The notes under the pieces are model-generated. The model made no database searches. It saw only the letters and a list, made by a program, of their open reading frames with translations, and was not told where the DNA came from. The translations under genes and the position numbers were made by a program. From Escherichia coli (lineage in GTDB: Bacteria > Pseudomonadota > Gammaproteobacteria > Enterobacterales > Enterobacteriaceae), in assembly GCF_003334335.1 (NCBI RefSeq), contig NZ_QOWQ01000056.1: a DNA stretch of 18,875 nt. One strand, given 5' to 3'. Below are positions 1-13,732 of the stretch, piece by piece. Within the stretch, counting starts at the first letter, position 1. Each line of letters begins with the position of its first letter.

Positions 1-77
1 TCCATAAATTAACCTTCATTTGATGCTGGATTGAACATATCAAAATCAGGCAATTACACAAATCTATGTACAGGCTC
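1..77. repeat. Left copy of a perfect 77-bp terminal inverted repeat (partner at 18799-18875)
   Basis: Reverse complement of 18799-18875 is identical to 1-77 base for base (checked by hand); identity stops at 77/78 (c vs a). AT-rich. Outward extent beyond the window edge cannot be seen. Confidence 0.9.
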
Positions 78-423
78 CTTGCGAACATTGTTCATCAACT
101 GTGACACTGGCTCGCGGGTGACAAATACTCGCCTGGCTGAGCAGCAACAGGCATCGTATTGTTGCTCCTCCATGTTGTTCCCGCAACCAGCGTAATACCA
201 CAGGCAGTGCTGGACTGGCAGTGTGATTGCTCTCAGTAATACGTTCGTGCACCTGTCGGAAAAAGGAAGTACAGAATGCATGAATCTGTTGCCCGTTGAT
301 ATTTCCTTCTGCCGAATGGAGTGTGAAGTAAAATGCCAGCAAATGCGGCCAGTGGTCCACCGCCTGCTGAACAAAACGCCGGATGTCTCCCGGCTCTGAA
401 ATTAAGGCTTCGGTTATTTGCAC
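64..423 (-). CDS. Hypothetical ORF, possibly a gene remnant in the GC-richer left flank; no family recognised
   Basis: 119-aa ORF in the track; the first codon is GTG (plus-strand cac at 421-423) and there is no in-frame ATG near the start. Stop TAG lies inside the left inverted repeat (64-66). A second overlapping minus-strand frame (54-374) is also open, so coding status is uncertain. Confidence 0.2.
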   Translation of the reverse strand: MQITEALISEPGDIRRFVQQAVDHWPHLLAFYFTLHSAEGNINGQQIHAFCTSFFRQVHERITESNHTASPALPVVLRWLREQHGGATIRCLLLLSQASICHPRASVTVDEQCSQGACT

Positions 424-430
424 GAAATGT
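398..430. repeat. Left copy of an imperfect direct repeat bracketing the microcin island (candidate att-like boundary)
   Basis: Core cttcggttatttgcacgaaatgt (408-430) matches cttcggttatttgctcggaatgt (14083-14105) at 21/23; with 10 flanking bases about 27/33. Same orientation. It sits at the switch from GC-richer flank to the AT-rich microcin block. Confidence 0.45.
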
Positions 431-758
431 TCCTTTTCAAACCCTGTTGGATTTTGTCAAGACGGTACAGACACAGTAAAGCGCGCATCAACACCTGAAA
501 GGTACGATACAAACACAAGTTACAAACAATAAGAACGGAAGGACAATTAATCAGTGAGGAATAATAACTAAATTAACCAAAAGAATGTTACTGACAATAC
601 CACCAATACTTAAATAGCAATATATTAATTAATGTAAGAACAGATGCCCGGTAAGACATATACACAATACATCCACAAACACACTCTTTTCATTAAATAA
701 ATCACCTGATTAAACCATGAAAGTGTGATGTAAGTCAAAATTACTGACACAATCAATT

Positions 759-783
759 GATAATGATTATCTCTATCATTATC
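759..783. promoter_or_regulatory. Fur-box-like operator (iron-responsive) upstream of the 869-2125 operon
   Basis: gataatgattatctctatcattatc: the first 13 nt match the Fur consensus GATAATGATAATC with one mismatch and the last 9 nt (ATCATTATC) match the consensus 3' half exactly. It lies about 85 bp upstream of the ATG at 869. Confidence 0.45.
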
Positions 784-868
784 GTGAAATTCGAGAATGA
801 AAGGAGAAGTAGTCATTATAAGCCTTTTATAAATCGTCATCATCATAGTAAAGTAGAACACTTTTTAT

Positions 869-1339
869 ATGAGTTACTATATGAAAATATACTGGACAAG
901 AAAAAACATTCCTGAACTTTCAGCACTTCCACCTTCATTAAGAAAGAAAAATTTTACTGACGCATATAATGCTGCATCTTCCCATATCGAATACTGGATA
1001 GGTGCTGGCGTCTCATTTATCTCGATGATGATTTTATTCAAAGTATATGACTTTCTTTTACCCGCCCAAGATACTTTCCCGGGTGATATCATAAGAAGTT
1101 TATGTGTTGTGTGTCCATCCATATTAATCTGGTTTCAGTTTTCGGTATATGTCATGAGGAAATATTACAGACATATTCTGGAACGAGGTAAGGAAACCGA
1201 AACCATTTCAGAAAGGTTGATACGTGAGGCTGATACACGAGAATATGAACTATGGCGTCCGGCCCATCGCTTTTTCTCCATTATTTTTCTCATTATTCTA
1301 TTAGTTTGCATTCATTCACTGATAACAACTATAAAATAA
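869..1339 (+). CDS. Putative polytopic membrane protein (156 aa), function unknown; possible microcin immunity or accessory protein
   Basis: ATG start at 869 (second ATG at 881); hydrophobic segments (WIGAGVSFISMMILF, LCVVCPSILIWFQFSVYV, FFSIIFLIILLVCIHSLI); very AT-rich like neighbouring microcin genes; co-directional and 100 bp upstream of the CPBP gene. No obvious Shine-Dalgarno. Confidence 0.45.
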   Translation: MSYYMKIYWTRKNIPELSALPPSLRKKNFTDAYNAASSHIEYWIGAGVSFISMMILFKVYDFLLPAQDTFPGDIIRSLCVVCPSILIWFQFSVYVMRKYYRHILERGKETETISERLIREADTREYELWRPAHRFFSIIFLIILLVCIHSLITTIK

Positions 1340-1438
1340 AAGTTATGGCTGTTCTGATACAGGAAAATAAACGTTCATTCTATGGTTACCTCTTCCTGTT
1401 ATATAAAAGAATTTTAAACAACAAGTAAGGGAATATAA

Positions 1439-2125
1439 ATGGAAATAACAAAAAATAAAAATGCAACTATAAAAAAACAGTCATCAGCCGGCTGCTTTTC
1501 AATGTTTACTTTATCATTTTCCATTACCTTTATTCCTGCATTTCTTACAAACAGGCAGGAACTTATATCCAGGGGGCTTCTTGTTCCAGCATTATTTCTT
1601 GCTGAATTTCTAATTCTTGTTCCACTGTATTTTATTTTCTTCCGAAAAAGAGAAGGATTAGGAAGAGGTTCTTTTCGACTGGATGTTTTTTTTACTCTTT
1701 TCTCTTTAATAATGATTATTCAGTTATTTGTCCCTTATCTGCTGGCAGTGAGGAAAACGGAAGAATGGATGATCTCGCAAATGTCTTTTTCCGGGGCCAT
1801 TTTATGGATTAATATATTTTCTTCCGTACTTCTTGTTCCTGTATATGAAGAGATTGTATTTCGAGGGTGTCTTTTTAACTCTTTTAAATTCTGGTTTAAT
1901 GACAATATTTACATCTCTGCTATTGTAACATCAGTCATATTTTCTGCATTACATCTACAATATACTGACTTTCGTACATTTTTGATGCTCTTTCTGATAT
2001 CGTTAGTTCTTATCAGTGCAAAAATAAAGTCGAATGGCCTGTTAATGCCCATATTACTTCACATGGCGATGAATGCAGTCATAACAGGAATACAATATAC
2101 GTTACAATATCACATAACAGTCTGA
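1439..2125 (+). CDS. CPBP-family (CAAX protease / bacteriocin-processing, Abi PF02517-type) intramembrane metalloprotease, McmM/MceF-like
   Basis: 228 aa; ATG at 1439 preceded by taaggga (1426-1432). Family motifs in order: EExxxR (VYEEIVFRG), FxxxH (FSALH), HxxxN (HMAMN), within a multi-helix hydrophobic protein. Homologues (mceF, mcmM) are known in siderophore-microcin clusters. Confidence 0.8.
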   Translation: MEITKNKNATIKKQSSAGCFSMFTLSFSITFIPAFLTNRQELISRGLLVPALFLAEFLILVPLYFIFFRKREGLGRGSFRLDVFFTLFSLIMIIQLFVPYLLAVRKTEEWMISQMSFSGAILWINIFSSVLLVPVYEEIVFRGCLFNSFKFWFNDNIYISAIVTSVIFSALHLQYTDFRTFLMLFLISLVLISAKIKSNGLLMPILLHMAMNAVITGIQYTLQYHITV

Positions 2126-2377
2126 AATTGTTATTATGAGATATCTATAACACCTGAAGTTGGAAAAAGAAGCAAATAATTCCTTATAAGGAATCGTTTA
2201 CTAATATATTTAGATAATCTCATATTTGTTTATGATATACATCTGATTAAGATATAATGGATTATAAATTACTCAAAGGTGAACAAATATCTTCGCCTTT
2301 TCTCGTAGAAAGAGACTTGAAACTTATAATACATCTATATAAACGTGATTTAAATCACGGTTTGCAGTAAAAGCAAT

Positions 2378-2386
2378 TGGTATAAT
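2378..2386 (+). promoter_or_regulatory. Candidate extended -10 promoter element (TGgTATAAT) for the immunity-like/microcin-like pair
   Basis: tggtataat at 2378-2386 fits the TGnTATAAT extended -10 pattern; the nearest -35-like hexamer (ttgcag, 2362-2367) has a short 13-nt spacer. Sequence-only prediction. Confidence 0.25.
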
Positions 2387-2570
2387 TCATTGGTATTACT
2401 ATTATTTCATCTATTGCACGAACTATTTTACAACAATAAAAAAGATATACAAACAGCAAGAAGTAAAAATATTCGGATAAATAAAAATTTTTGCTACCTT
2501 GGTTTCTATAGTCTTTATTTCTAAGTTTTTCATAAGCACTCAAAGACTCATGTATAGGGACGGTTTAATA

Positions 2571-2735
2571 ATGAAACTATTTTTTTATTTCTCGTTGTTC
2601 TTTATAATACAACTTATAAATTCAGACTTAGACACATTAACCCTTTATCTTTTCATAAAGAAAATAATTCTTTCGTTACTTGCGAGTGTACTGTTTTTAT
2701 TTGTTTTATCTTTCTTTAATAAAAAGAGGAAATAA
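2571..2735 (+). CDS. Candidate microcin immunity protein (small two-helix hydrophobic peptide, about 54 aa)
   Basis: The track ORF 2499-2735 starts at TTG; in-frame ATGs occur at 2550 and 2571, and the 2571 one has aggga 11 nt upstream. Product MKLFFYFSLFFIIQLI...IILSLLASVLFLFVLSFF NKKRK has two hydrophobic helices and a basic tail. Stop TAA (2733-2735) is 1 nt before the microcin-like ATG, and the precursor's RBS lies inside its last codons. Confidence 0.4.
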   Translation: MKLFFYFSLFFIIQLINSDLDTLTLYLFIKKIILSLLASVLFLFVLSFFNKKRK

Positions 2736-2736
2736 C

Positions 2737-3060
2737 ATGAGAAATATAACAACCGATGAACTTGCTTTAATACATGGTGCAGGATTAGATAAAGATGCAT
2801 CCGTTGCAATAGGTACTGCGGCTGGTGGTTTTTTAGGTAAAGCAACAAAAATCCCTGGTGCGGATATAGCAGGAAGTGCAATTGGAGGATATATTGGAGG
2901 AGTTATTGCTGATGGTTCAAATAGGACAATAACAATACCATCAAACGGTATTAACTATAATCCGGGTATAGGACTTGGAAGTTTTAATCCAAACTACAAT
3001 GGAGGTTTATTAAACTCAGGATTTAACTCATCAACATCCTCTTCTAGTAGTGGAAGTTGA
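2737..3060 (+). CDS. Class IIb (siderophore-type) microcin-like precursor, 107 aa: 15-aa double-glycine-type leader plus 92-aa Gly/Ser-rich core
   Basis: ATG at 2737 with strong SD aagagga (2724-2730). Leader MRNITTDELALIHGA|G parallels MchB MREITESQLRYISGA|G and the MRxI(S/T)xxEL pattern. Core is cysteine-free, 20/92 Gly, and ends NSSTSSSSSGS like the Ser-rich tails of H47 and E492 that receive the salmochelin-type moiety. The track's 126-aa version starts at TTG (2680) with no RBS and overlaps the upstream ORF. Confidence 0.7.
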   Translation: MRNITTDELALIHGAGLDKDASVAIGTAAGGFLGKATKIPGADIAGSAIGGYIGGVIADGSNRTITIPSNGINYNPGIGLGSFNPNYNGGLLNSGFNSSTSSSSSGS

Positions 3061-3069
3061 TTAATTTCT

Positions 3070-3105
3070 AAAGCAGCATAGCTTATTATGCAGCAATGCT
3101 GCTTT
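3070..3105. terminator. Candidate bidirectional rho-independent terminator between the convergent microcin-like gene and mchF
   Basis: aaagcagcat (3070-3079) pairs with atgctgcttt (3096-3105); an alternative tighter hairpin gcagc-aat-gctgc is followed by tttt. Located between the stop at 3060 (+) and the stop at 3121 (-). Confidence 0.45.
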
Positions 3106-3120
3106 TAGTGATATATTATC

Positions 3121-5223
3121 CTAATTTGTAATTCTAAAAATCCGATCAACTGTTCTTAAAGTTGTCTCTCTATGTGCAATAATCACCCGGGTGATATTCA
3201 TCTTTTTTATAGCAGCATTCACGAAACGTTCACTTTCTGTATCAAGAGAACTTGTAGCCTCATCCATAAATAATATTCCAGGTTTCCGGTATAAAGCTCG
3301 GGCAATGAATATACGCTGTTTTTGACCGCCGGAAAGACCTTCCCCCAGTTCACCTATTAACGTTTCATACCCCATTGGCATTTTCATTATCACATCATGA
3401 ATATGACTTGCTCTGGCACATTCTGTCATCCATTCGTCGTCTGTTTCTTCTGCAAACCCACAGATATTTTCACGAATTGATCCTGAAAATAGCCGGTCGT
3501 CCTGCATAACACAGGCTATCATACGGTGATAATTATTTATTCCAAGTTGACGTATATCCGTGCCATTAACCAGTACTTTTCCACTATCTGGTTCAAACAG
3601 TCCACATAATACTTTCATTAATGTGGTTTTTCCGGCACCGGAGGCACCAGTTATAGCCACACTTTCTCCCGGAGCCACAGACAAATTCAGACCACTGAAT
3701 ACCTGTGCTGACTGGCTGTCATACCGGTAGCTTAAATCAGTGGTTTCCAGTGAAACCGGGCTCATGTCAGCAACGATTTCAATTTCCGGTTTCTTTTCTT
3801 CCTTTTCATGTAGTGCAATATCTGCAATGCGCTCATTATGCAGACTCATTATTCTCAGTTGAAGAAGAAAACTGGTCAGCGAAGCAACCCGATCCGAAAA
3901 CTGCCCACGAAAAGAACCAAATGCCACAAACATCCCTATTGTCATCTGATTATCGATCACAAGGCTTGCACCCAGCCATAAAATCGCCACCTGATCACAG
4001 GCGGCAACAAAAGTATTTATCCCCCCGAAGAGCAAATCCATCCTGGTTAACTTAATACCTGAATTGATCGCATCTATTTTCAGGTTAAGCCAGTGTGTTC
4101 CCCGAATCCCAGCCATACCCTGGATTTTTACCGTGGCAATACCATACAGGCTTTCCATAAAATAGGAGCTGGCCCGGGCCCCCCTGACAAGAGTTTCTTC
4201 CGATATTTGCCGGTAATAGCCGTATGTCACCAGACGAATAAGAACGTAAACCATGGTAAAACCGAGCACTATCCAGGTAAGATATCCTCCATATAACAGC
4301 ATCATCACAAAAACACCCACAACCATAATACTGTCCATGATTGCCCCAACAACACAGGTGGTAAAGGTGGCCCTCAAAGTGTCAAGGGAGCCAAAACGCG
4401 ACTGGATATCACCTAATTTACGGCGTTCAAAAAACGCCAGCGGCAGTCTGAGAAGATGGTTAAACAGACCCGACTGCCACTGTATATTGATGAGCGTGCT
4501 CATAACCAGTGAGGACCATGCACGCAGCATACTCACCGCGGCCCTGAGCAATATAAAGAACATCAGGCCAGCAGAAATAAGCGTCAGCAGCCCTCTGTCC
4601 CCCGCCGGAATCGCATGATCCATAACCAGCTGAGTTCCCACCGGCATTACCAGATTGATTGCTTCAATTACAACTGACAGACAGAAAATTTTCGCCAGTG
4701 TTCTTTTAATACCGTAAATACTGTTAATCAGTGAACGGAGACTTATGCGGGTCTGCTGGGTTTCCGCCAGGAATTCACTTCCGGGCCAGACCTCAAGTGC
4801 AATGCCCGTAAAATACCGGCTCATTTCCTCCCGACCGAGATATCTTCTGCCTCTGGCCGGATCATGCAGTACATAACGGTTACGCTTTACGCTGACCAGC
4901 ACGACGAAGTGACTGAAATCCCAGTGGAGAATACACGGCATTTTGAGGGCACCAAGTTCATCCAGCTCCAGTGAAAGAGCCCGGGTGACCATCCCCAGCT
5001 GCTCCGCTATTCCATTGATTCCTGCAAGGTTTGCTCCACGGGCCGAGAGATTAAACTTCCGGCGAAGAGATATCAGGTCAATATTCTTACCAAAATGACC
5101 GCATATCATTGCCAGGCAGGCCAGTCCACATTCAGCGGTCTCCGTCTGATGAATAACCGGAACACGACGTCGCCAGCGCATATCAAGCTGATTTATAATT
5201 TGTCTGAAATTCCCGTTAGTCAT
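3121..5223 (-). CDS. mchF: Microcin export ABC transporter with N-terminal C39 peptidase domain (CvaB/MchF family)
   Basis: About 700 aa. C39 catalytic Cys context [14 protein letters not shown]; Walker [10 protein letters not shown]; ABC signature LSGGQKQR; Walker [10 protein letters not shown]. The track ORF (to 5241) begins at GTG; the ATG at 5223 ([10 protein letters not shown]) has AGGA 9 nt upstream and overlaps the mchE stop by 8 nt, as in cvaA/cvaB. Confidence 0.93.
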
Positions 5224-6457
5224 TGAGCGGTCCTGTTGCACTGTGTTTCATGTCATAGAAAGGAGAAAGCATCCACTGGTAAATACGCCTTTTTTCCAGA
5301 AATAGTGTACTTTCGGCTTTCATTCCATTTTCCAGAGGGAGGTATTTTTCGTCATATCTGATAATCTGCTTTTCAGGCATCGCAATGACTTTATACCAGG
5401 GAACAGAGTCGCCCGGCGTATTCTGTGGTGCTCCCTTATAGGTCAACATTTCCTGTGTTGACGCAGGAGTCCTGGATATAGTTTTAACCGTAGCAGAGAA
5501 CTGCCCAAATTTTTCTGCCGGAAAGGCTTCATAACGAATATTCACTTTGTCACCAGCCGAAATATAAGGAACAGCATCATTCGGGACCCAGAGAATAAGA
5601 TAATAGTTTTCAATGTTCTCAGGAATAACCTGCAGAAGGCTGTCTCCGGTATTGACCATTTGCCCGACAGTGACACTCAGGGAGTCAACTTTCCCGTCAG
5701 TCAACGCCCGGATAATGATTTCGCCCTCCACATCAGTGTTAACCAGTTCTTTCTGTAACTCATACCGTTGCAGTTCCATCTGGTAGATACGGTTATCAAA
5801 ATCTGCAGCCTGAGTCTGAATCTGACTCTCCAGAGTGGTTATCTGCAGGGCATTCTGTTCGTTCTGTCCGCTCAGGCTGAGAAGATTGTTTTGTTGCTGA
5901 TAATATAATGCCACCTGGTTAGTTAACTGATCTTTATTAATCAGCCCTTTTGCCTGATAGTTTCTGTAATTCTCCATATTGTTTTTCATTATTTTTATCC
6001 CTTCCTCTGCACGCTGTATAATATCTGATGAGCGACGAAACGCATCTGTGTATTGCAGGCGTTGTTTTTCCAGGGTATCTAGCGTTATTTTTTTACTTTC
6101 TTCCAGACGGGAAATAATGTTGTCCACACGAACCAACTGGTTTTCTATATCCCGACGATGATTATCAGTGACAATACCACTACGTGTACTTTTACTGATG
6201 TCAATCAGATAAACAGGATCCCCTTTTTTTATCAACTGTCCTTCATGAACAAACTGCCTGACAACAAATCCCTGTACACCTGAATATATATTGACAGCTC
6301 TTGGCCAGGTTGTGACCTCACCACTGACATTAACACGGCGGCTATAGGTACCAACAATAATGAACATCAGAAATGCCGTAATAAACACTATGCTTCCCAG
6401 CATGATTAACCATAGTGGTATTCCGGGAAGTAATATTGCCCGTCCCTGCCACTTCAT
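5216..6457 (-). CDS. mchE: HlyD-family membrane fusion / secretion protein (CvaA/MchE family)
   Basis: N-terminal TM segment ([28 protein letters not shown]) followed by a long coiled-coil region and C-terminal beta domain typical of HlyD-type partners. The track ORF starts at TTG (6490); the first ATG is at 6457 ([12 protein letters not shown]), giving 413 aa. Confidence 0.92.
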
Positions 6458-6642
6458 TTTTCTGTTTTCTAAAGCATCCTGACGAAACAAAATAGCTCCT
6501 CTTACTCACACTTTTCCTGTAATATCTTCACTGGTTAACCGAAATGCTATAATCAAAGCCAGAAAATACAGAGTCCTGTCAAAATAGTATCAGCGATGCA
6601 TTTACCCCGTAATTTACAATTATCTCTGTATCTTCAGAGGTA

Positions 6643-7095
6643 CTACGTTTTATGCAGCCGCTCAGGGATGTATGTCACAATTTTCTTTCGCCTGCTTAAC
6701 CATCGTACTTCTCCTTCTCCCCATGGCTGAAGCTGTATGAGATAGTCAATAACTTTTCGACCAAAGCCTGGTTTACAACAGAAATCCAGAATCCAAATCC
6801 TTCCATCTTCATTCCATTCAGACGGATGCAACCTGAATTCTGGATCCCTGAGCAGGCGCGCTTCTGTATCAGCCTCAAGATATGCCCAGGTAATATACGC
6901 CAGTGGAAAACCTCGTGAATCAAACAGGAATTTAATCTGATTATGCTGTATCGCATATTCAGTCCAGTATTGAATGGTTAACACCGGATACAGACTGTAA
7001 TTACGATTGTAGAGCATACAACTGACCGCAAAACCGATCTGTTCATAAACAGTCCATTCATCTTTTCCTCTGATGGTTTCCCTTATATAAGACAT
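6643..7095 (-). CDS. mchD: MchD/MceI-like microcin maturation protein (HlyC-like acyltransferase family), 150 aa
   Basis: ATG start at 7095; 150 aa; located between mchC and mchE in the conserved mchBCDEF order. In the E492 system the MceI/MceJ pair links glycosylated enterobactin to the C-terminal Ser of the precursor. Confidence 0.8.
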   Translation of the reverse strand: MSYIRETIRGKDEWTVYEQIGFAVSCMLYNRNYSLYPVLTIQYWTEYAIQHNQIKFLFDSRGFPLAYITWAYLEADTEARLLRDPEFRLHPSEWNEDGRIWILDFCCKPGFGRKVIDYLIQLQPWGEGEVRWLSRRKKIVTYIPERLHKT

Positions 7096-7120: not shown

Positions 7121-8671
7121 TTACACTGTGTTTCTTATCGGTTCAAGATATCCAAATGCATCTCTGGAAAACTTAAGCATAAAATTTTTCATATCAGAAA
7201 TTGCTTCTTGTAAAAAAAGGGGATCATCGCCATGATTATCCAGCAGGATGGCAATTTTTTCGCACATATTCTCTTTCCTCAGCTCTTCCCTGGGTTGCAG
7301 CCTTTTCATGGTATGATGTTCAATTTCTTTCAGGAGTAATGAGGCATTTATCTGACGTCTGGTACTGCCTTGCGTCAGCCAGTGGATGGCCTGGGAAAAA
7401 CACTGTTGTGCAACGGTGAAATAAACATCATTCTTGATGCTACTATTCAGTGCCTGCTTTTGATTATGCCTATGATGGATTAGCGTCACAACCAACTTTT
7501 GCAATGGTGAACCATCCTGATTGACAATATCTTGGGCATGTGATTTCTCGCAGTATTGATTGAGTAATGCAACAAAACTGTTAACCAGTTCTTTCAATAT
7601 ATCAGGTATCTCTTTTTGTGTTATAAATTCTCCAGGAATACCCAACAGTTCTAGATAACAGTAATAACATGCTTCATGAAAAGTTTTCTGAAATATCTCC
7701 TCAACCTTCAAACGGGCTGCAAGAGTGAAGTCAGGGTCAAACATATATTTTCCGATATACAAGCAGAGATCAGACAGCCCTTGCATAAGTACCATCGGTT
7801 CTTTTGCCAGTTCAGCTAATCTTAGTTTATACCCAAAATCAGCTGGGGAATCTCCCGGAAACAGACAACTGAGTCCGCTAAAATCCATTAATCTGCCATC
7901 CATTGCAATATTAGAAGGAGAAGTTGTCAATCTCAGGAAACGTGTTCGACAAAATGCCATTTGCCAGGCCTCACGACGTGCCAGTTCACATAACCCCTCA
8001 ATGCAATAAATCCGGGGATCAGTTCGTGCTTCAGCATCAATTTCTTCCGGTGGTACAGGTAGATATCCTGGCAGCTTGTGGATCACAGATCTAACCCGAC
8101 AGGCATCGTGAATTAACAGACTGGAATACTCCGGTTTTACTTGGAAGTAAGGTGCCCGTTCAAAATGCGCCGGACGAACAACAGGCTCACGTACCAACAG
8201 GGCTCTTCGTGATTTCCTACCGGAGCGCTCAAATGCCTTTTCAGTATAGAGATCTGTAAGTAAAACCGCCCGAACCCGCACAGCACTATAAGGTAATATT
8301 TGAGCCAGTACTTCTCCCCACAAAGCCTCATATATTGCATGAACAGCGCCGAGTGCACCATTAGAATGACGTTCGTCAGTACCTTCGCCAACCAACGGAT
8401 TACTTCCTATTCCTTTAACCTGGTAGTTACCATCAAACCCACAACGTGCACCACCTCCATTACGCTGAATACCACTGCCACCATAGCGCTCTGCATGGAA
8501 CACTTTGGCAGAAGCTGTACTGCCAGGATCGATAATATAACTGCAGGCATTTTGCAGCTCGTCTGGATTTCTGACATCCTCTGCACACCAGATTAATGAG
8601 GCCTTGATCTGCCTGGCAGTGAAAGGCACCAGGTTTTCATTCAGTTCAGAAAGTGAACACTGATGACTCAT
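7121..8671 (-). CDS. mchC: MchC/MceJ-like microcin maturation protein, 516 aa
   Basis: ATG start at 8671 (MSHQCSLSELNENLV...), GGAG about 12 nt upstream; 516 aa; immediately downstream of mchB on the same strand and upstream of mchD. Confidence 0.85.
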   Translation of the reverse strand: MSHQCSLSELNENLVPFTARQIKASLIWCAEDVRNPDELQNACSYIIDPGSTASAKVFHAERYGGSGIQRNGGGARCGFDGNYQVKGIGSNPLVGEGTDERHSNGALGAVHAIYEALWGEVLAQILPYSAVRVRAVLLTDLYTEKAFERSGRKSRRALLVREPVVRPAHFERAPYFQVKPEYSSLLIHDACRVRSVIHKLPGYLPVPPEEIDAEARTDPRIYCIEGLCELARREAWQMAFCRTRFLRLTTSPSNIAMDGRLMDFSGLSCLFPGDSPADFGYKLRLAELAKEPMVLMQGLSDLCLYIGKYMFDPDFTLAARLKVEEIFQKTFHEACYYCYLELLGIPGEFITQKEIPDILKELVNSFVALLNQYCEKSHAQDIVNQDGSPLQKLVVTLIHHRHNQKQALNSSIKNDVYFTVAQQCFSQAIHWLTQGSTRRQINASLLLKEIEHHTMKRLQPREELRKENMCEKIAILLDNHGDDPLFLQEAISDMKNFMLKFSRDAFGYLEPIRNTV

Positions 8672-8942: not shown

Positions 8943-9170
8943 TTAGCTACCGCCACCAGCAGAAGAACTGGCACTACCACTTCCCACGGTCGAGCCAATT
9001 GCTGTTGTCAAACCGGCAGATACGGCTCCAACTACAACCCCAAGTGGACCACCAGGTATTCCGGCGAGAGCTCCAACAATAGCTGCAGCACCTGCAGCAT
9101 TAGCTGAAGTCGCTGGCGCACCTCCCGCCCCGGAAATATATCTTAACTGTGATTCTGTTATTTCTCGCAT
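8943..9170 (-). CDS. mchB: Microcin H47 precursor (75 aa; 15-aa double-glycine-type leader, Gly/Ala-rich core, Ser-rich C-terminal tail)
   Basis: Translation MREITESQLRYISGAGGAPATSANAAGAAAIVGALAGIPGGPLGVVVGAVSAGLTTAIGSTVGSGSASSSAGGGS matches the microcin H47 precursor as I remember it (length, leader, SASSSAGGGS tail). ATG at 9170. Confidence 0.95.
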   Translation of the reverse strand: MREITESQLRYISGAGGAPATSANAAGAAAIVGALAGIPGGPLGVVVGAVSAGLTTAIGSTVGSGSASSSAGGGS

Positions 9171-9197: not shown

Positions 9198-9407
9198 TTA
9201 ACTTCCGTTTTTCCAGTCTGACCAGACCAGAATCCTTCGAATCCCATGAATCAGCTCAATAAAACCAAGAAATATTATAAAGCTTAGAAAAACGTCAACA
9301 TAAGAATTCCCTTCGCCAACAATCCGAAGGGATGAAAGTGAAACCAATAAGATAGTAATAGGTAAACTGAATATAGCCGTCAATTGGGACAGTTTTTTAT
9401 AACTCAT
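9198..9407 (-). CDS. mchI: Microcin H47 immunity protein (69 aa, membrane peptide)
   Basis: 69-aa hydrophobic peptide (two predicted TM helices) directly upstream of and co-directional with mchB; ATG at 9407. Size and position match MchI. Confidence 0.88.
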   Translation of the reverse strand: MSYKKLSQLTAIFSLPITILLVSLSSLRIVGEGNSYVDVFLSFIIFLGFIELIHGIRRILVWSDWKNGS

Positions 9408-9475: not shown

Positions 9476-9595
9476 TCAGGTCATCGATAAAGAATATTCC
9501 AGTAGAGTGGCGCTCATGATCAAAGATAACAGCAAAGTTGATGACAGTGCTGACCGACTGTCATTTACAGAAACCCTGTTTGTAGCAAATTCCAT
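9476..9595 (-). CDS. mchX: Small 39-aa ORF upstream of mchI (MchX-like regulatory peptide)
   Basis: Not in the track (below 60 aa); found by hand: ATG at 9595 to TGA at 9476-9478, translation MEFATNRVSVNDSRSALSSTLLLSLIMSATLLEYSLSMT (39 aa). Position and length match mchX of the H47 system; I cannot confirm the sequence from memory. Confidence 0.55.
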   Translation of the reverse strand: MEFATNRVSVNDSRSALSSTLLLSLIMSATLLEYSLSMT

Positions 9596-9626
9596 CTTAC
9601 CTGACCTCACCCAGACAAAGACAAAA

Positions 9627-9645
9627 GAGAATGATTGTTATTTAC
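9627..9645. promoter_or_regulatory. Weak Fur-box-like site in the mchX / mchS4 divergent promoter region
   Basis: gagaatgattgttatttac matches the 19-bp Fur consensus at 13/19; it sits about 30-50 bp upstream of the mchX start on the minus strand. Confidence 0.3.
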
Positions 9646-9818
9646 TTTTCAAAAAAAGTGTCATATTGTCCATATAAAGTCAAGAGGTATTTTACGTTAT
9701 GTCACTGATGCAATTGTTAGTCAGGATCTCATGGTTGTCGCTCATGTATAACCTGAGACTTGAACGCACACTAATAGCGCTGACGGTCATACATCGGGAA
9801 ATGTGAGGAGGCATAAGA

Positions 9819-10064
9819 ATGAATTGTGATAATAATCACAGAAATGAAGAATTCATTGTTACCTTTGATAAAGGCAACAAGCAAGACAATTCAAGACGAA
9901 AACACGATAATTTTCCTATAGAGGTAGAATCCTCCGTAGAGCAGGAGACACACTGTATCACAAATAATAAGTCAGCTTCCGGTATAGTAACACATGGCTA
10001 TGATGCCGATTATATTTGTGGTTGTGGTGAAATTATGTGTCCTGGTTGCGGTCATGACCTATAA
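9819..10064 (+). CDS. mchS4: Small 81-aa protein with C-terminal Cys cluster (CxC-x4-CxxC), MchS4-like by position
   Basis: ATG at 9819 with SD gaggagg (9805-9811). C-terminus YICGCGEIMCPGCGHDL. Position between mchX and mchS3 matches the H47 island gene order as I recall it. Confidence 0.55.
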   Translation: MNCDNNHRNEEFIVTFDKGNKQDNSRRKHDNFPIEVESSVEQETHCITNNKSASGIVTHGYDADYICGCGEIMCPGCGHDL

Positions 10065-10084: not shown

Positions 10085-10098
10085 TACCTGATCAGGTA
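10085..10098. repeat. Perfect 14-bp palindrome tacctgatcaggta just downstream of mchS4
   Basis: tacctgatcaggta is its own reverse complement; lies 21 bp after the mchS4 stop and about 120 bp upstream of mchS3. No loop, so it looks more like a protein-binding site than a terminator. Confidence 0.3.
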
Positions 10099-10219
10099 CA
10101 AGCCTGTTGATTATTATGCTGAATATTTCATGTTATAAAACCATCGATATAAACATTAACAAGAAAAAACATATATTGTTTATCTGAACATTTATCGATG
10201 GAAAACCAAAGGGGAAAGT

Positions 10220-10654
10220 ATGTATCTTACGAAAAAGATTATAATAAGTATGATGTTTATATTACCATCTGCTGCATTTTCATCAGATCCACCTCCCCTT
10301 CAACAATCGTTAGAAAAAACAACCTATTTTTCTATAGGTATGAATGGGTTTATAGGCTATCAGAGCGAAGGGGAAAAATTATACACACACATTCTTACAT
10401 TAGATAATCCCGAAGAGATATTTAAAAATATAATAGAAAATAGAAAGTCAACTAAGGAGTCTAAAATTTATGCTGCTTGTGGGCTATATTATTTAAACGT
10501 AGAAAATATAGAGTCATTGTTTAATGAAAATGATAAACAAGAATATATGTCTGTCTTAAGAGGGGATATTTTAACAAAAATAAAACTGAATGATATTCTG
10601 AATTCTGTGATAATAAATGGTTGCAACACCAAATTAATATCTGAACATAAATGA
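10220..10654 (+). CDS. mchS3: Putative immunity protein for the downstream microcin (144 aa, N-terminal signal/anchor), MchS3-like
   Basis: ATG at 10220 with SD aaagggga upstream; N-terminal hydrophobic segment KKIIISMMFILPSAAFSS; ends 16 bp before the microcin precursor gene, the classic immunity-then-toxin arrangement. Confidence 0.65.
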   Translation: MYLTKKIIISMMFILPSAAFSSDPPPLQQSLEKTTYFSIGMNGFIGYQSEGEKLYTHILTLDNPEEIFKNIIENRKSTKESKIYAACGLYYLNVENIESLFNENDKQEYMSVLRGDILTKIKLNDILNSVIINGCNTKLISEHK

Positions 10655-10670: not shown

Positions 10671-10907
10671 ATGAGAGAAATATCAGATCACATGCTTGAT
10701 TTCGTGAAAGGAGGGATGAATCTTAATGGATTACCTAGTTCTACTAATGTAATAGATCTACGAGGAAAAGATATGGGAACATATATTGATGCTAATGGAA
10801 CATGCTGGGCTCCGGGTACTCCATCCATCATCATGTATCCGGGGGGAAGTGGACCTTCTTATAGTATGAGTAGTTCCACATCCAGCGTAAACAGCGGCAC
10901 ATCATAA
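10671..10907 (+). CDS. mchS2: Second siderophore-microcin-type precursor (78 aa; leader MREISDHMLDFVKGG, Ser-rich tail), microcin I47-like
   Basis: ATG at 10671 with SD aggagg (10657-10662). 15-aa leader ending GG, 63-aa core with one Cys, C-terminal SMSSSTSSVNSGTS. Position next to mchS3 and mchS1 matches the H47 island. Confidence 0.8.
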   Translation: MREISDHMLDFVKGGMNLNGLPSSTNVIDLRGKDMGTYIDANGTCWAPGTPSIIMYPGGSGPSYSMSSSTSSVNSGTS

Positions 10908-11191: not shown

Positions 11192-12466
11192 ATGATACCT
11201 ATGAAAAACTATCTTTTCCAGACTCCCGAAGATATTTGTGTACAGTTAAAAAAAATGACACATCCTGTCACAATAAGAACAACAGATATTGCTAATTTCT
11301 GGCACTATCTTGAGTCAGCAACACTTCCAGTGATCACAAAAAGCACCACTACAGAAAATCGGGAGGTTACATTTCTGTGGCGCTCAGAGAAAGCACTGCA
11401 AGGCGTATATCTTCGCCTGAATCGTGTTACAGATAAAAAAGACGTCAAAAAAGGACTAATGACTCATATCCCTTCGACAGATATCTGGATGCTGACACTG
11501 GTGTTACCAGCTTCATATCGGGGCTCATACTCATTTATAGAAATTCCCACAGATATGACACAAAAAGACATATTTCAACTAGGAAGTCGCTTCTCTCCAT
11601 TACCCGGTAAATCTGATCCATTTAACAAAACAGCAGAAATAAATATACGAGGATTCGGAGAATCAGTCCTTTCTCTTGATATGGCTCCTGAACAAAAGGA
11701 ATGGGATGATACTTCCCATAAATGTACAGGTATTCTTTCAACATTACATTCCTTTGTTGCAGGATATCAACGCCGGATTCGTTTATATTTCCCCCTGAAT
11801 CCAACATCAGTACCTCTTGGATTACTTGTGTTACCTGATGCTGAAACATGGTTTGACCGGATAGATATTACCCGGGCATTAGATATGGCCATCACCACTG
11901 GTCGTATCACGCCAATGGCAATTATGGGGATAGACAATATTAATGAATCTGATCGTATGAATATACTGGGAGGCAATAAAGAACTCATCTTTGATATAGC
12001 GGAAAATCTGATACCCCAGTTATACAGAGACTATCCGGATATCGTATGGGCTGGTCGCTCTAATACTGTACTGGCCGGGCAGAGCCTCGGTGGAGTGACA
12101 GCACTGATGGCAGCTATATATGCGTCGACAACATTTGGTACAATCATTAGTCACTCACCTTCAATGTGGTGGAACCCTGACCAGGGCAGCCCGATCTTGT
12201 TTACTGAGAATAATACCTCCTGGGTAAGTGAGCAGATACTTTCAGCGCCTCCGAAAGATGTAAATATCCGACTTGGAGTCGGTTCTTTAGAAGGTACAAC
12301 CGTCTCACATGTTCAGCGATTGCATCATTCGTTAATCGCAGCTGGTTTGGAAAGTAACCTCACTGTCTATACCGGTGGTCACGATTATGCTTGGTGGCGC
12401 GGAGCAATTATTGATGAATTAGCAAATTATAATTGCAGGAAGGTATCAAATAATAACTCTGTGTAA
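11192..12466 (+). CDS. mchS1: IroD-like enterobactin/salmochelin esterase (alpha/beta hydrolase), 424 aa
   Basis: Serine-hydrolase nucleophile motif GQSLGG (AGQSLGGVTALMAA); size close to IroD/Fes-type esterases; convergent with and adjacent to the IroB-like glycosyltransferase. Alternative ATG at 11201. Confidence 0.8.
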   Translation: MIPMKNYLFQTPEDICVQLKKMTHPVTIRTTDIANFWHYLESATLPVITKSTTTENREVTFLWRSEKALQGVYLRLNRVTDKKDVKKGLMTHIPSTDIWMLTLVLPASYRGSYSFIEIPTDMTQKDIFQLGSRFSPLPGKSDPFNKTAEINIRGFGESVLSLDMAPEQKEWDDTSHKCTGILSTLHSFVAGYQRRIRLYFPLNPTSVPLGLLVLPDAETWFDRIDITRALDMAITTGRITPMAIMGIDNINESDRMNILGGNKELIFDIAENLIPQLYRDYPDIVWAGRSNTVLAGQSLGGVTALMAAIYASTTFGTIISHSPSMWWNPDQGSPILFTENNTSWVSEQILSAPPKDVNIRLGVGSLEGTTVSHVQRLHHSLIAAGLESNLTVYTGGHDYAWWRGAIIDELANYNCRKVSNNNSV

Positions 12467-12607: not shown

Positions 12608-13732
12608 CTACAATTGTTTCCCGTTGTTTTTTAATTTTCTCATCAAAACCTCTGCGATCTCTGCAGGAGTGGGTTGTTCAGCCATTTCAGCGGCTACCTG
12701 ATCTGAACAGAAGCGTAGTGAATCATCATAAAGCAGGCGATTTACCAAATCACTGGTCAGTCCATGCTTGTCCGGAATAATCCCACACCCACGCTTCGCA
12801 ACAATTTCTGCATTAACAGAGCGATCTGCACCTTCTCCAAACACAATCTGTGGTATTCCACTATACAGCGCTGTCAGGGTATTACCTGCGCCACCGTGAT
12901 GAATAAATCCATCAGCTCCATTAAGGAATACACCCATAGGTATCCAGTCAACCAGACGTACATTTGATGGTAGTTTTCGTAATCCAGTACGAGCATTTAT
13001 TGCAAGTTGCAAAATGATATCAGCATCAACTTCATTTGCTGAATCCATAACCCATGAAATCAGCTCCAGACCATCAACCATTGGTTTTACAGTGCCAAGG
13101 CTGATGAGTAAACGTTTCCGATCAGAATCCCTGTCCCACCATGTTTCCTTTACAGCACCTCCGTTATAAGGAATATATCGCATTGAGATAATCGGTTCTT
13201 CAGCATTTTTAAGAATGCTCATACTTGGGGGAGCAACATCAATCCATGCTAAATCACATAGTGGACCGCTGACTCCATGCCGCCTGTAAGCATTGCTTAA
13301 AGAACGGTTTAACATCTGAATATGGGCAGATGTATGCGCGAATCCAACAGCCAGCATCACTGAAGGAATTCTATATTTAGCAGCAACCAATGGGCCTGCC
13401 GGACCAAGCGGGGGATAGACTATTAAATCTGGCCTCCATTTTCCTGCAAAATCGATGAGGTTATCTGCCATTTCATCGCTAAAAAAAGAGAAATGACCAA
13501 TAATATTACTTTTTTTCCTCAACTCTTCCTGATGGCGATATCCAGCCTCTGAATCTAAACTTGGAGCTGCATCAAAAACAACCAGTCCAGCTTCTGCTGC
13601 TTTATTCGCGAATTTGCCAGCGCTACTAATTACTACATCATGTCCGATTACACGAAAGGCCTGAGCCAGAGAAATCAATGGGTATAACAAACCGTACAGC
13701 GGAGGGCCAATAAAAAGAATACGTTTTCGCAT
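12608..13732 (-). CDS. mchA: IroB-like C-glycosyltransferase (GT1/MGT family) for enterobactin glucosylation, 374 aa
   Basis: ATG at 13732 (MRKRILFIGPPLYGLLYPLISLA, the IroB-like N-terminus); UDP-sugar-binding signature region FIHHGGAGNTLTAL; length close to IroB. Confidence 0.88.
   Translation of the reverse strand: MRKRILFIGPPLYGLLYPLISLAQAFRVIGHDVVISSAGKFANKAAEAGLVVFDAAPSLDSEAGYRHQEELRKKSNIIGHFSFFSDEMADNLIDFAGKWRPDLIVYPPLGPAGPLVAAKYRIPSVMLAVGFAHTSAHIQMLNRSLSNAYRRHGVSGPLCDLAWIDVAPPSMSILKNAEEPIISMRYIPYNGGAVKETWWDRDSDRKRLLISLGTVKPMVDGLELISWVMDSANEVDADIILQLAINARTGLRKLPSNVRLVDWIPMGVFLNGADGFIHHGGAGNTLTALYSGIPQIVFGEGADRSVNAEIVAKRGCGIIPDKHGLTSDLVNRLLYDDSLRFCSDQVAAEMAEQPTPAEIAEVLMRKLKNNGKQL

Follow-up and report, generated by a model that had tools for sequence, protein, structure and literature searches.

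A conserved C-terminal cysteine-histidine motif in the MceE/MchS4 proteins of microcin gene clusters and its possible role in metal binding

Introduction

The siderophore microcins H47, M, I47 and E492, which require a supply of enterobactin for their activity, are being engineered into probiotics such as Escherichia coli Nissle 1917. Two papers describe mchS4 as a gene responsible for, or promoting, the overproduction of enterobactin (enterochelin) by an unknown mechanism (PMC10380612; PMC6071977); both cite Azpiroz & Lavina 2004 for this phenotype, and the former names mchS4 "the single gene responsible". The mechanism of mchS4 is a 20-year-old question (2004) with practical relevance to engineered microcin probiotics. 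Here, mchS4 is analyzed in a stretch of 18,875 nucleotides from E. coli (contig NZ_QOWQ01000056.1), referred to as the window, which is the E. coli microcin H47/I47 island and carries the gene at positions 9819..10064 of the plus strand. A first-pass annotation of the sequence had given the link with enterobactin as uncertain, and the papers cited above do state it.

In Klebsiella pneumoniae, the cluster of microcin E492 (MccE492) encodes MceE, a protein of 114 residues that is described as uncharacterised and whose C-terminal similarity to MchS4 was previously noted (PMC6071977). According to the same work, the mceE mRNA is monocistronic, the mceE/mceX intergenic region binds Fur in vivo, the Fur box of the mceE promoter titrates Fur in vivo, and a proximal Fur box overlaps the -10 element of mceE. 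Cysteine is never mentioned in PMC6071977. What is already known is, in short, the mchS4 gene, its enterobactin phenotype and the C-terminal similarity to MceE. In the searchable literature, which does not include the original 2004 paper, no discussion was found of the cysteine motif of MchS4, of its Cys4-His residues as the invariant core of a family under selection at the protein level, of the extent of this family over several genera without a Pfam or NCBIfam profile, or of its strict pairing with mchX, including one cluster that is not of class IIb.

The gene of the window resembles mceE in several respects. It is found in the same place, divergent from the mceX/mchX gene and beside the maturation genes, and it shares with mceE the presence of a Fur box in the common control region. 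The tails of MceE (YICGCGCESCCGCGHDL) and MchS4 (YICGCGEIMCPGCGHDL) present the same motif, whereas the N-terminal 64-97 residues are essentially unrelated, and the overall identity of 33% lies mostly in the tail. MchS4 is also 33 residues shorter than MceE and lacks two of its six tail cysteines.

The C-terminal motif and its conservation

The mchS4 coding sequence (9819..10064, plus strand), taken from the list of open reading frames (ORFs) and its translation, runs from an ATG start to a TAA stop and encodes a member of the MceE/MchS4 family with 81 residues. The product ends in the pattern C67-x-C69-x4-C74-x2-C77, followed by H79, while two further cysteines, C3 and C46, are not conserved. 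The CxC-x4-CxxC description of the first-pass annotation is exact; its count of four cysteines and one histidine also stands, although they lie within 13 residues and not 14, the four cysteines alone spanning 11.

By itself, the cysteine cluster is within chance for an arbitrary reading frame. In Markov-shuffled windows read in six frames, the exact CxCx4CxxC pattern appeared 0.05 times per window and loose clusters (at least four cysteines in 11 residues) about three times; five other loose clusters are present in the non-coding frames of the window, whose DNA is AT-rich. The significance of the cluster therefore rests on comparative evidence.

Direct searches with the 81-residue protein did not leave the species. 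With phmmer, E. coli sequences were the only ones found among 1.84 billion representatives, a word-indexed search returned nothing beyond near-identical sequences of this species, intact or frameshifted, and tblastn of MchS4 against plasmids gave only noise matches. A 42-residue version of the tail profile retrieved just two proteins. Syntenic loci from other genera were fetched via MchC, and homologues were found in this way in Cedecea colo, Hafnia psychrotolerans and Tenebrionibacter intestinalis, where the ORFs divergent from the mchX homologue end in ...YVCGCGCDCCCGCGHDL or ...YICGCGCESCSGCGHDL. A profile search from these homologues retrieved 43 proteins, among them the Klebsiella "protein MceE" as well as members from Salmonella, Raoultella and metagenomes. 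It was synteny that exposed this diverged family, and without it MchS4 would appear to be an orphan.

The T. intestinalis homologue (925..1245 of its locus, L014, minus strand) is interrupted in its N-terminal part by an in-frame stop that follows codon 46. The ATG-initiated remainder of 52 codons retains the intact motif end CGCGCDCCCGCGHDF.

The family was defined from 29 aligned sequences, with no Pfam or NCBIfam model behind the definition. In these proteins, the C-terminal 17 residues follow, with little variation, the pattern [YF][IV]CGCG[C/S/E]xxC[C/x]GCGHDL, and the N-terminal 60-100 residues are hydrophilic and can barely be aligned. The mean entropy per column amounts to 0.52 bits for the tail and 1.86 bits for the N-terminal part. 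G68, C69, G70, C74, G76 and C77 are invariant across several genera, and C67, G78, H79 and L81 are conserved in at least 90% of the sequences. The corresponding segment of the window is Y65-L81 (10011..10061, plus strand; YICGCGEIMCPGCGHDL), in which C67, C69, C74, C77 and H79 are the proposed metal ligands according to the alignment. The window protein presents the family motif [YF][IV]CGCGxxxCxGCGHDL, which ends at the stop codon or one residue before it, with all the invariant and near-invariant columns. It also has the family layout, a variable hydrophilic N-terminus with no signal peptide or transmembrane segment, and the family gene order, where mchX (minus strand) is head-to-head with mchS4 (plus strand) and mchI, mchB, mchC and mchD lie beyond mchX.

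Moreover, every conserved residue of the tail varies synonymously across eight loci (TGT/TGC, GGT/GGC/GGA/GGG, CAT/CAC, GAC/GAT and CTA/CTC/TTG), which indicates selection on the peptide and not on a DNA or RNA element. Judged from these alignments, the comparison confirms that the 17-residue Cys4-His tail is the only strongly conserved element of the family, and that the cluster is real and, by this measure, biologically meaningful.

A variable body with an invariant tail that reaches the stop codon is also typical of arrest peptides. The conserved C-terminus of MchS4 could accordingly be read as a ribosome arrest or attenuation peptide acting in cis on downstream genes, since its invariant tail of about 17 residues ends at the stop codon and, in E. 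coli and Klebsiella, an immunity/microcin pair comes next downstream on the same strand. However, the gene located 3' of the MchS4-like ORF is not conserved, being a transposase gene in locus L016, an esterase gene in L021, a gene of the major facilitator superfamily (MFS) 530 nt away in L023 and a gene on the opposite strand in L022. In addition, the mceE transcript is reported to be monocistronic (PMC6071977) and the reported enterobactin phenotype acts in trans. On these three grounds, a cis-acting leader peptide was rejected as a reading of mchS4, and the arrest explanation is hardly credible.

Distribution and variation of mchS4 in E. coli

The ORF 9819..10064 is mchS4 itself, beyond merely occupying its position, because an allele in the same 90% cluster as its product is named "MchS4 protein" (UniProt Q712P8); the name given by the first-pass annotation was correct. 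In an identical RefSeq locus (L001), the product is the hypothetical protein WP_001554633.1. A strong Shine-Dalgarno sequence, GAGGAGG (9805..9811, plus strand), was read from the sequence 7 nt 5' of the ATG, and similar purine-rich sequences are found at an equal distance in all the homologous loci. On the 3' side of the stop, a consensus scan gave only a weak terminator-like hairpin (10093..10106, plus strand) with a 5-bp stem and a T-poor tail, which fits the monocistronic mceE transcript reported in Klebsiella (PMC6071977).

The mchS4 ORF was intact in 11 of the 12 sampled E. coli genomes, Nissle 1917 included. Of 5426 complete E. coli genomes, 292 carry a 621-bp region around the gene, in every case at a chromosomal location. 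The common intact alleles are present on 700 to more than 1000 contigs each, with about 900 to more than 1000 for the exact protein of the window and two others, and few contigs carry alleles that break the cysteines (60 for C74F and one each for C67F and C69Y).

Some features of these sequences and of their annotation were also observed. At codon 60 (position 9997), the window has glycine (GGC; the G60 allele), as does strain AVS0967, and this allele is present on 918 contigs; the remaining sampled genomes have D60, as does the acidic stretch ahead of the knob (the cysteine-rich tail) in the family. In variant P0005, residues 30-45 are deleted in frame. The stretch coding for the cysteine knob (10017..10049) consists of short TGTGGT/TGCGGT repeats, and frameshifts inside this stretch or just ahead of it were found in several E. 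coli variants, for example in L010 (codon 74), P0002, P0003 and P0004; these variants may come from a slippage-prone sequence. Concerning annotation, RefSeq, through the Prokaryotic Genome Annotation Pipeline (PGAP), does not call mchS4 in Nissle 1917 or in ATCC 25922, though the gene is intact in both, and elsewhere gives it as "hypothetical protein". In the RefSeq locus identical to the window, mchX and the structural gene of microcin I47 (MccI47) are both unannotated.

Predicted properties of MchS4

The N-terminal part of MchS4 is strongly hydrophilic, with a grand average of hydropathy of -1.24 and a highest 19-residue hydropathy of 0.56, and no hydrophobic segment, signal peptide or double-glycine leader was found in the protein. 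The predictions point to a protein that is probably cytoplasmic and disordered, with a C-terminal knob rich in cysteine, glycine and histidine. The suggestion of the first-pass annotation that MchS4 is a small metal-binding protein gains strength, as the four cysteines and the histidine that it had noted are the conserved residues of the family, and MchS4 may well be a protein of this kind. The role as a regulator or adaptor that it also proposed is plausible from the genomic context.

The pairing with mchX and the Fur box

The genomic context was examined in 14 loci, namely the window and loci L013-L025. All of them (14/14) contain exactly one MchX-like and one MchS4-like ORF, head-to-head. 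The MchX-like ORFs end in ...LLEYSL plus two variable residues (usually M[FT], once LIS) up to the stop codon, the commonest tail being ...LIM[ST]ATLLEYSLSM[FT]. In the window, mchX is a short divergent ORF (9476..9610, minus strand) that ends in LIMSATLLEYSLSMT and has 44 residues from a GTG start or 39 from an internal ATG at 9595. The mchX-like/mchS4-like pair behaves as one inherited module.

Between the two genes, a consensus scan found a Fur-box-like site, GAGAATGATTGTTATTTAC (9627..9645, recorded without strand; 14/19 on the minus strand), which lies beside mchX and 192 nt upstream of the mchS4 start. Klebsiella and Hafnia have the identical sequence at the corresponding position, the other loci have close variants of it, and the intergenic box scores 15-16/19 in Cedecea, Tenebrionibacter and Raoultella. 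A search of the DNA upstream of 9819 gave no convincing sigma-70 promoter for mchS4.

This site could explain the enterobactin phenotype in a different way, by titration of Fur. Multicopy clones carrying the mchX-mchS4 Fur box would derepress ent, and the MchS4 protein would have another role, for example in the regulation of microcin genes together with MchX. The Fur-box-like site is conserved in all the loci, the promoter fragments of mceE and mceX gave positive Fur titration assays as small pACYC184 clones (PMC6071977), MceX acts in trans on mceBA expression, and the X/S4 pair is strictly co-inherited. Nevertheless, the words "the single gene responsible" in PMC10380612 suggest that the phenotype was mapped to the mchS4 ORF, and the strong conservation of the knob at the protein level shows a function of the protein, so that titration covers the phenotype but not the motif. 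It is considered an unlikely explanation.

Regarding the neighboring genes, 13 of the 14 loci are class IIb microcin loci with some or all of the MchC, MchD, MchEF, esterase and glycosyltransferase genes, and maturation genes of the mchC/mchD type adjoin the pair in most of the 14. In three Salmonella enterica loci (L016, L017 and L018), the class IIb cluster is plasmid-borne, beside relaxase, PsiA/PsiB and ParB genes. L017 and L018 have retained only a minority of the genes for maturation and export, L018 having a 388-residue remnant at the place of mchC in L016; all three contain the microcin gene together with both ORFs of the mchX-like/mchS4-like pair.

The remaining locus, L019 (Logan SRR28555620 contig, 1..5800), has the pair and a Fur-like box beside a cluster that is not of class IIb, with genes for a ligase that forms adenosine monophosphate (AMP), a LysA-like decarboxylase dependent on pyridoxal phosphate (PLP), an unknown protein of 357 residues and a fragment of an ATP-binding cassette (ABC) exporter. 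The contig is metagenomic and plasmid-like and carries ArdC and DUF1281 genes. The presence of the pair next to such a cluster favors a general role in the iron signal over an enzyme-specific one.

The gene neighborhoods also bear on whether MchS4 could be a precursor of a ribosomally synthesized and post-translationally modified peptide (RiPP). Precursors of the PqqA, MftA and MbnA type present a variable N-terminus and an invariant core at the extreme C-terminus, and the layout of MchS4 resembles them. In such a case, a variable leader would precede a Cys/Gly core whose modification, to groups such as thiazolines or thioamides, would yield a metal chelator, in the manner of MbnA or microcin B17. 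The Gly-Cys dipeptides are conserved and the gene lies within peptide-antibiotic clusters having ABC exporters, yet genes of the cyclodehydratase, radical S-adenosylmethionine or MbnB-like type are absent from all 14 loci, the conserved neighbors all have assigned roles in microcin maturation, L019 shares no enzymes with the class IIb clusters and still retains the pair, and MchS4 has no double-glycine leader. Hence, a RiPP-like precursor is improbable. Two specific precursor types were considered and rejected. For a precursor of the thiazole/oxazole-modified microcin (TOMM) or methanobactin type, no enzyme of the YcaO, McbBCD or MbnBC type was found among the annotated or Pfam-labelled neighbors in any of the loci; for a class IIb microcin precursor, MchS4 has neither an MRxx...GG/GA leader nor a Ser-rich tail, unlike MchB and the MccI47 precursor.

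A possible role in the iron response

Considering the motif together with its context, MchS4 could be an iron-regulated, disordered cytoplasmic protein whose C-terminal Cys4-His knob binds metal and boosts the Fur regulon, which is the best-supported reading and is given a probability of about 0.4. In the proposed mechanism, C67, C69, C74, C77 and His79 would be the ligands of a metal ion, either Zn2+ or Fe2+, or of a small Fe-S center. Under low iron, mchS4 would be expressed from the Fur-controlled divergent mchX/mchS4 region, and the knob would then lower the iron signal seen by Fur, or antagonize Fur directly, leading to derepression of ent. The outcome would be enough enterobactin for the maturation of siderophore microcins. 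In this model, the binding of metal, the kind of metal bound and the action by way of Fur are the parts that we infer. The conservation pattern, the predicted cytoplasmic location, the Fur-box context, the published phenotype and the portability of the X/S4 pair fit it, and putative metal binding is the most promising clue to the way in which MchS4 increases enterobactin production.

If the knob antagonizes Fur or sequesters iron, it would represent a new kind of small-protein input to iron regulation and could offer an easy means of adjusting how much siderophore and microcin is made. A bolder and unlikely extension would be that the mchX-like/mchS4-like pair is a portable control module centered on a Fur box and attached to different export-coupled clusters (class IIb in 13 loci, AMP-ligase/PLP-decarboxylase in L019). 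In this extension, the knob would belong to a new class of metal-sensing small proteins that feed back on Fur and iron homeostasis, as an "anti-Fur" or a sink of labile iron, or would be the core of an undescribed cysteine-derived metallophore.

Several observations weigh against the metal-binding model. No Pfam match at E<=0.001 was obtained for any of the 29 members, NCBIfam gave no match for the members of the family, and sequence searches of the PDB with MchS4 and with the tail profile gave none; likewise, the arrangement of four ligands in 11 residues has no evident counterpart among solved mononuclear sites. Structure prediction, which the first-pass annotation had put forward as a check, yielded no fold: the predicted local distance difference test (pLDDT) of AlphaFold2 was 34.5 from the single sequence and 50.1 from the 29-sequence alignment, the latter showing no secondary structure. 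Positions 71 and 75, which are cysteines in most relatives, are lost from E. coli MchS4. Near the mchS4 start, no Fur box of at least 13/19 was found in E. coli, where the distant intergenic site is the sole one, whereas for mceE a proximal box at the -10 element has been reported. The published phenotype may belong to the cloned DNA and not to the protein. Finally, the 12 sampled E. coli genomes show five non-synonymous changes, one synonymous change and one frameshift in mchS4, frameshifted or truncated variants occur in the species, and the gene is approximately as variable as the flanking non-coding DNA. Constraint is invisible at this depth, and it cannot be demonstrated within E. coli because the divergence is too shallow.

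The variation within the species could also mean that E. coli mchS4 is a decaying remnant without a present function. Its product is the shortest and most divergent member of the family, with two semi-conserved cysteines lost, the changes are mostly non-synonymous, with frameshift and truncation variants, and PGAP often fails to call the gene. Against this, the intact 81-residue form dominates (three alleles on 900 to more than 1000 contigs each) and cysteine-breaking alleles are rare, the four core cysteines and the histidine are retained, and PMC10380612 and PMC6071977 report a phenotype. Decay is therefore very improbable.

The number of cysteines leads to a variant of the metal-binding model, in which the knob would be a redox-active or Fe-S center that senses iron, sulfur or redox state and not a passive metal sink. 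Most relatives have six or seven tail cysteines in 13 residues, beyond the need of one mononuclear site, a CxC pair is combined with a CxxC pair and followed by a conserved histidine, and the genomic context is iron-regulated. On the other hand, the tail of E. coli MchS4 holds no more than the minimal set of four cysteines, no match to Fer2_BFD or any other Fe-S family was found in Pfam, and the spacer between the pairs has 4 residues compared with about 30 in Bfd and Hsp33. A redox or Fe-S sensor is, on balance, quite unlikely.

Some known families were compared with MchS4 and rejected. The first-pass annotation had compared the motif with a zinc ribbon or metal-binding knuckle, and the zinc-ribbon label is not supported. 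A zinc ribbon or rubredoxin-like knuckle needs two CxxC(G) elements on separate beta-hairpins, about 10 or more residues apart, and in MchS4 the first pair is CxC, the spacer between the CxC and CxxC pairs has only 4 residues, and just the second pair (CPGCG) is knuckle-like. AlphaFold2 with the alignment shows no hairpins, and no profile matched in Pfam, NCBIfam or the PDB, the best zinc-ribbon-type Pfam hit being E = 0.072 in one member. A Bfd-like [2Fe-2S] domain (PF04324) was rejected by the lack of a Pfam match and by the spacer of 4 versus about 30 residues. For a bacterial metallothionein (SmtA), there was no Pfam or PDB match, and the motif has four cysteines and one histidine versus nine or more Cys/His residues for a Zn4 cluster.

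Gene organization of the microcin H47/I47 island

The other genes of the window were located with the ORF list and the RefSeq locus. On the minus strand, mchF (3121-5241), mchE (5216-6490), mchD (6643-7095), mchC (7121-8671), mchB (8943-9170) and mchI (9198-9407) precede mchX, and a glycosyltransferase gene is found at 12608-13732. The plus strand carries, after mchS4, mchS3 (10220-10654), the gene of the MccI47 precursor (10671-10907) and an esterase gene (11192-12466). The names mchX and mchE and the label MccI47 are those of this island.

The strongest Fur-box match of the window is not the intergenic one but GATAGAGATAATCATTATC (759..777, 17/19), which has overlapping matches of 14-16/19. 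It lies about 90 nt upstream of the ORF 869..1339 (plus strand), a hypothetical protein in RefSeq, which is followed by a CPBP-family gene at 1439..2125.

Comparison with known systems

The closest relative outside E. coli by N-terminus and length is a plasmid-borne MchS4-like protein of Salmonella enterica (P0043), with 86 residues and 38% identity. Its N-terminus, MNSDNNHK, compares with MNCDNNHR in MchS4, and its gene, like mchS4, faces an mchX-like ORF head-to-head within a class IIb cluster, beside relaxase and PsiAB genes. Its tail, ICGCGSDECCGCGHDLW, has five cysteines and an extra C-terminal tryptophan.

Among proteins of known function, Bfd ([2Fe-2S]) and Hsp33 (a zinc redox switch) combine a CxC pair with a CxxC pair in a folded domain, with a spacer of about 30 residues, and Bfd is in addition a small Fur-regulated protein. 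MchS4 likewise has a CxC and a CxxC pair, but with a spacer of 4 residues on a chain that is predicted to be disordered, so the likeness would be a functional analogy only. The CPGCG half of the motif recalls a rubredoxin-type knuckle.

The C-terminal tail of SlyD and SmtA contain metal-binding stretches rich in cysteine and histidine. The knob of MchS4 is likewise a short Gly/Cys/His-rich stretch (GCGH, CGC) carried on an unrelated or disordered chain and needing no fold of its own. It has no detectable sequence kinship with SlyD or SmtA, and its motif is fixed in length and sequence and is not of low complexity.

Lastly, the regulator of class IIb operons MchX/MceX (39-44 residues) shows the same general design as MchS4, with a variable N-terminus and an invariant C-terminus; it is also Fur-controlled and acts in trans. 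The two sequences are unrelated, since MchX ends in a hydrophobic tail (LIMSATLLEYSLSMF) with no cysteine cluster. MchX is the obligatory neighbor of MchS4 and probably its functional partner.

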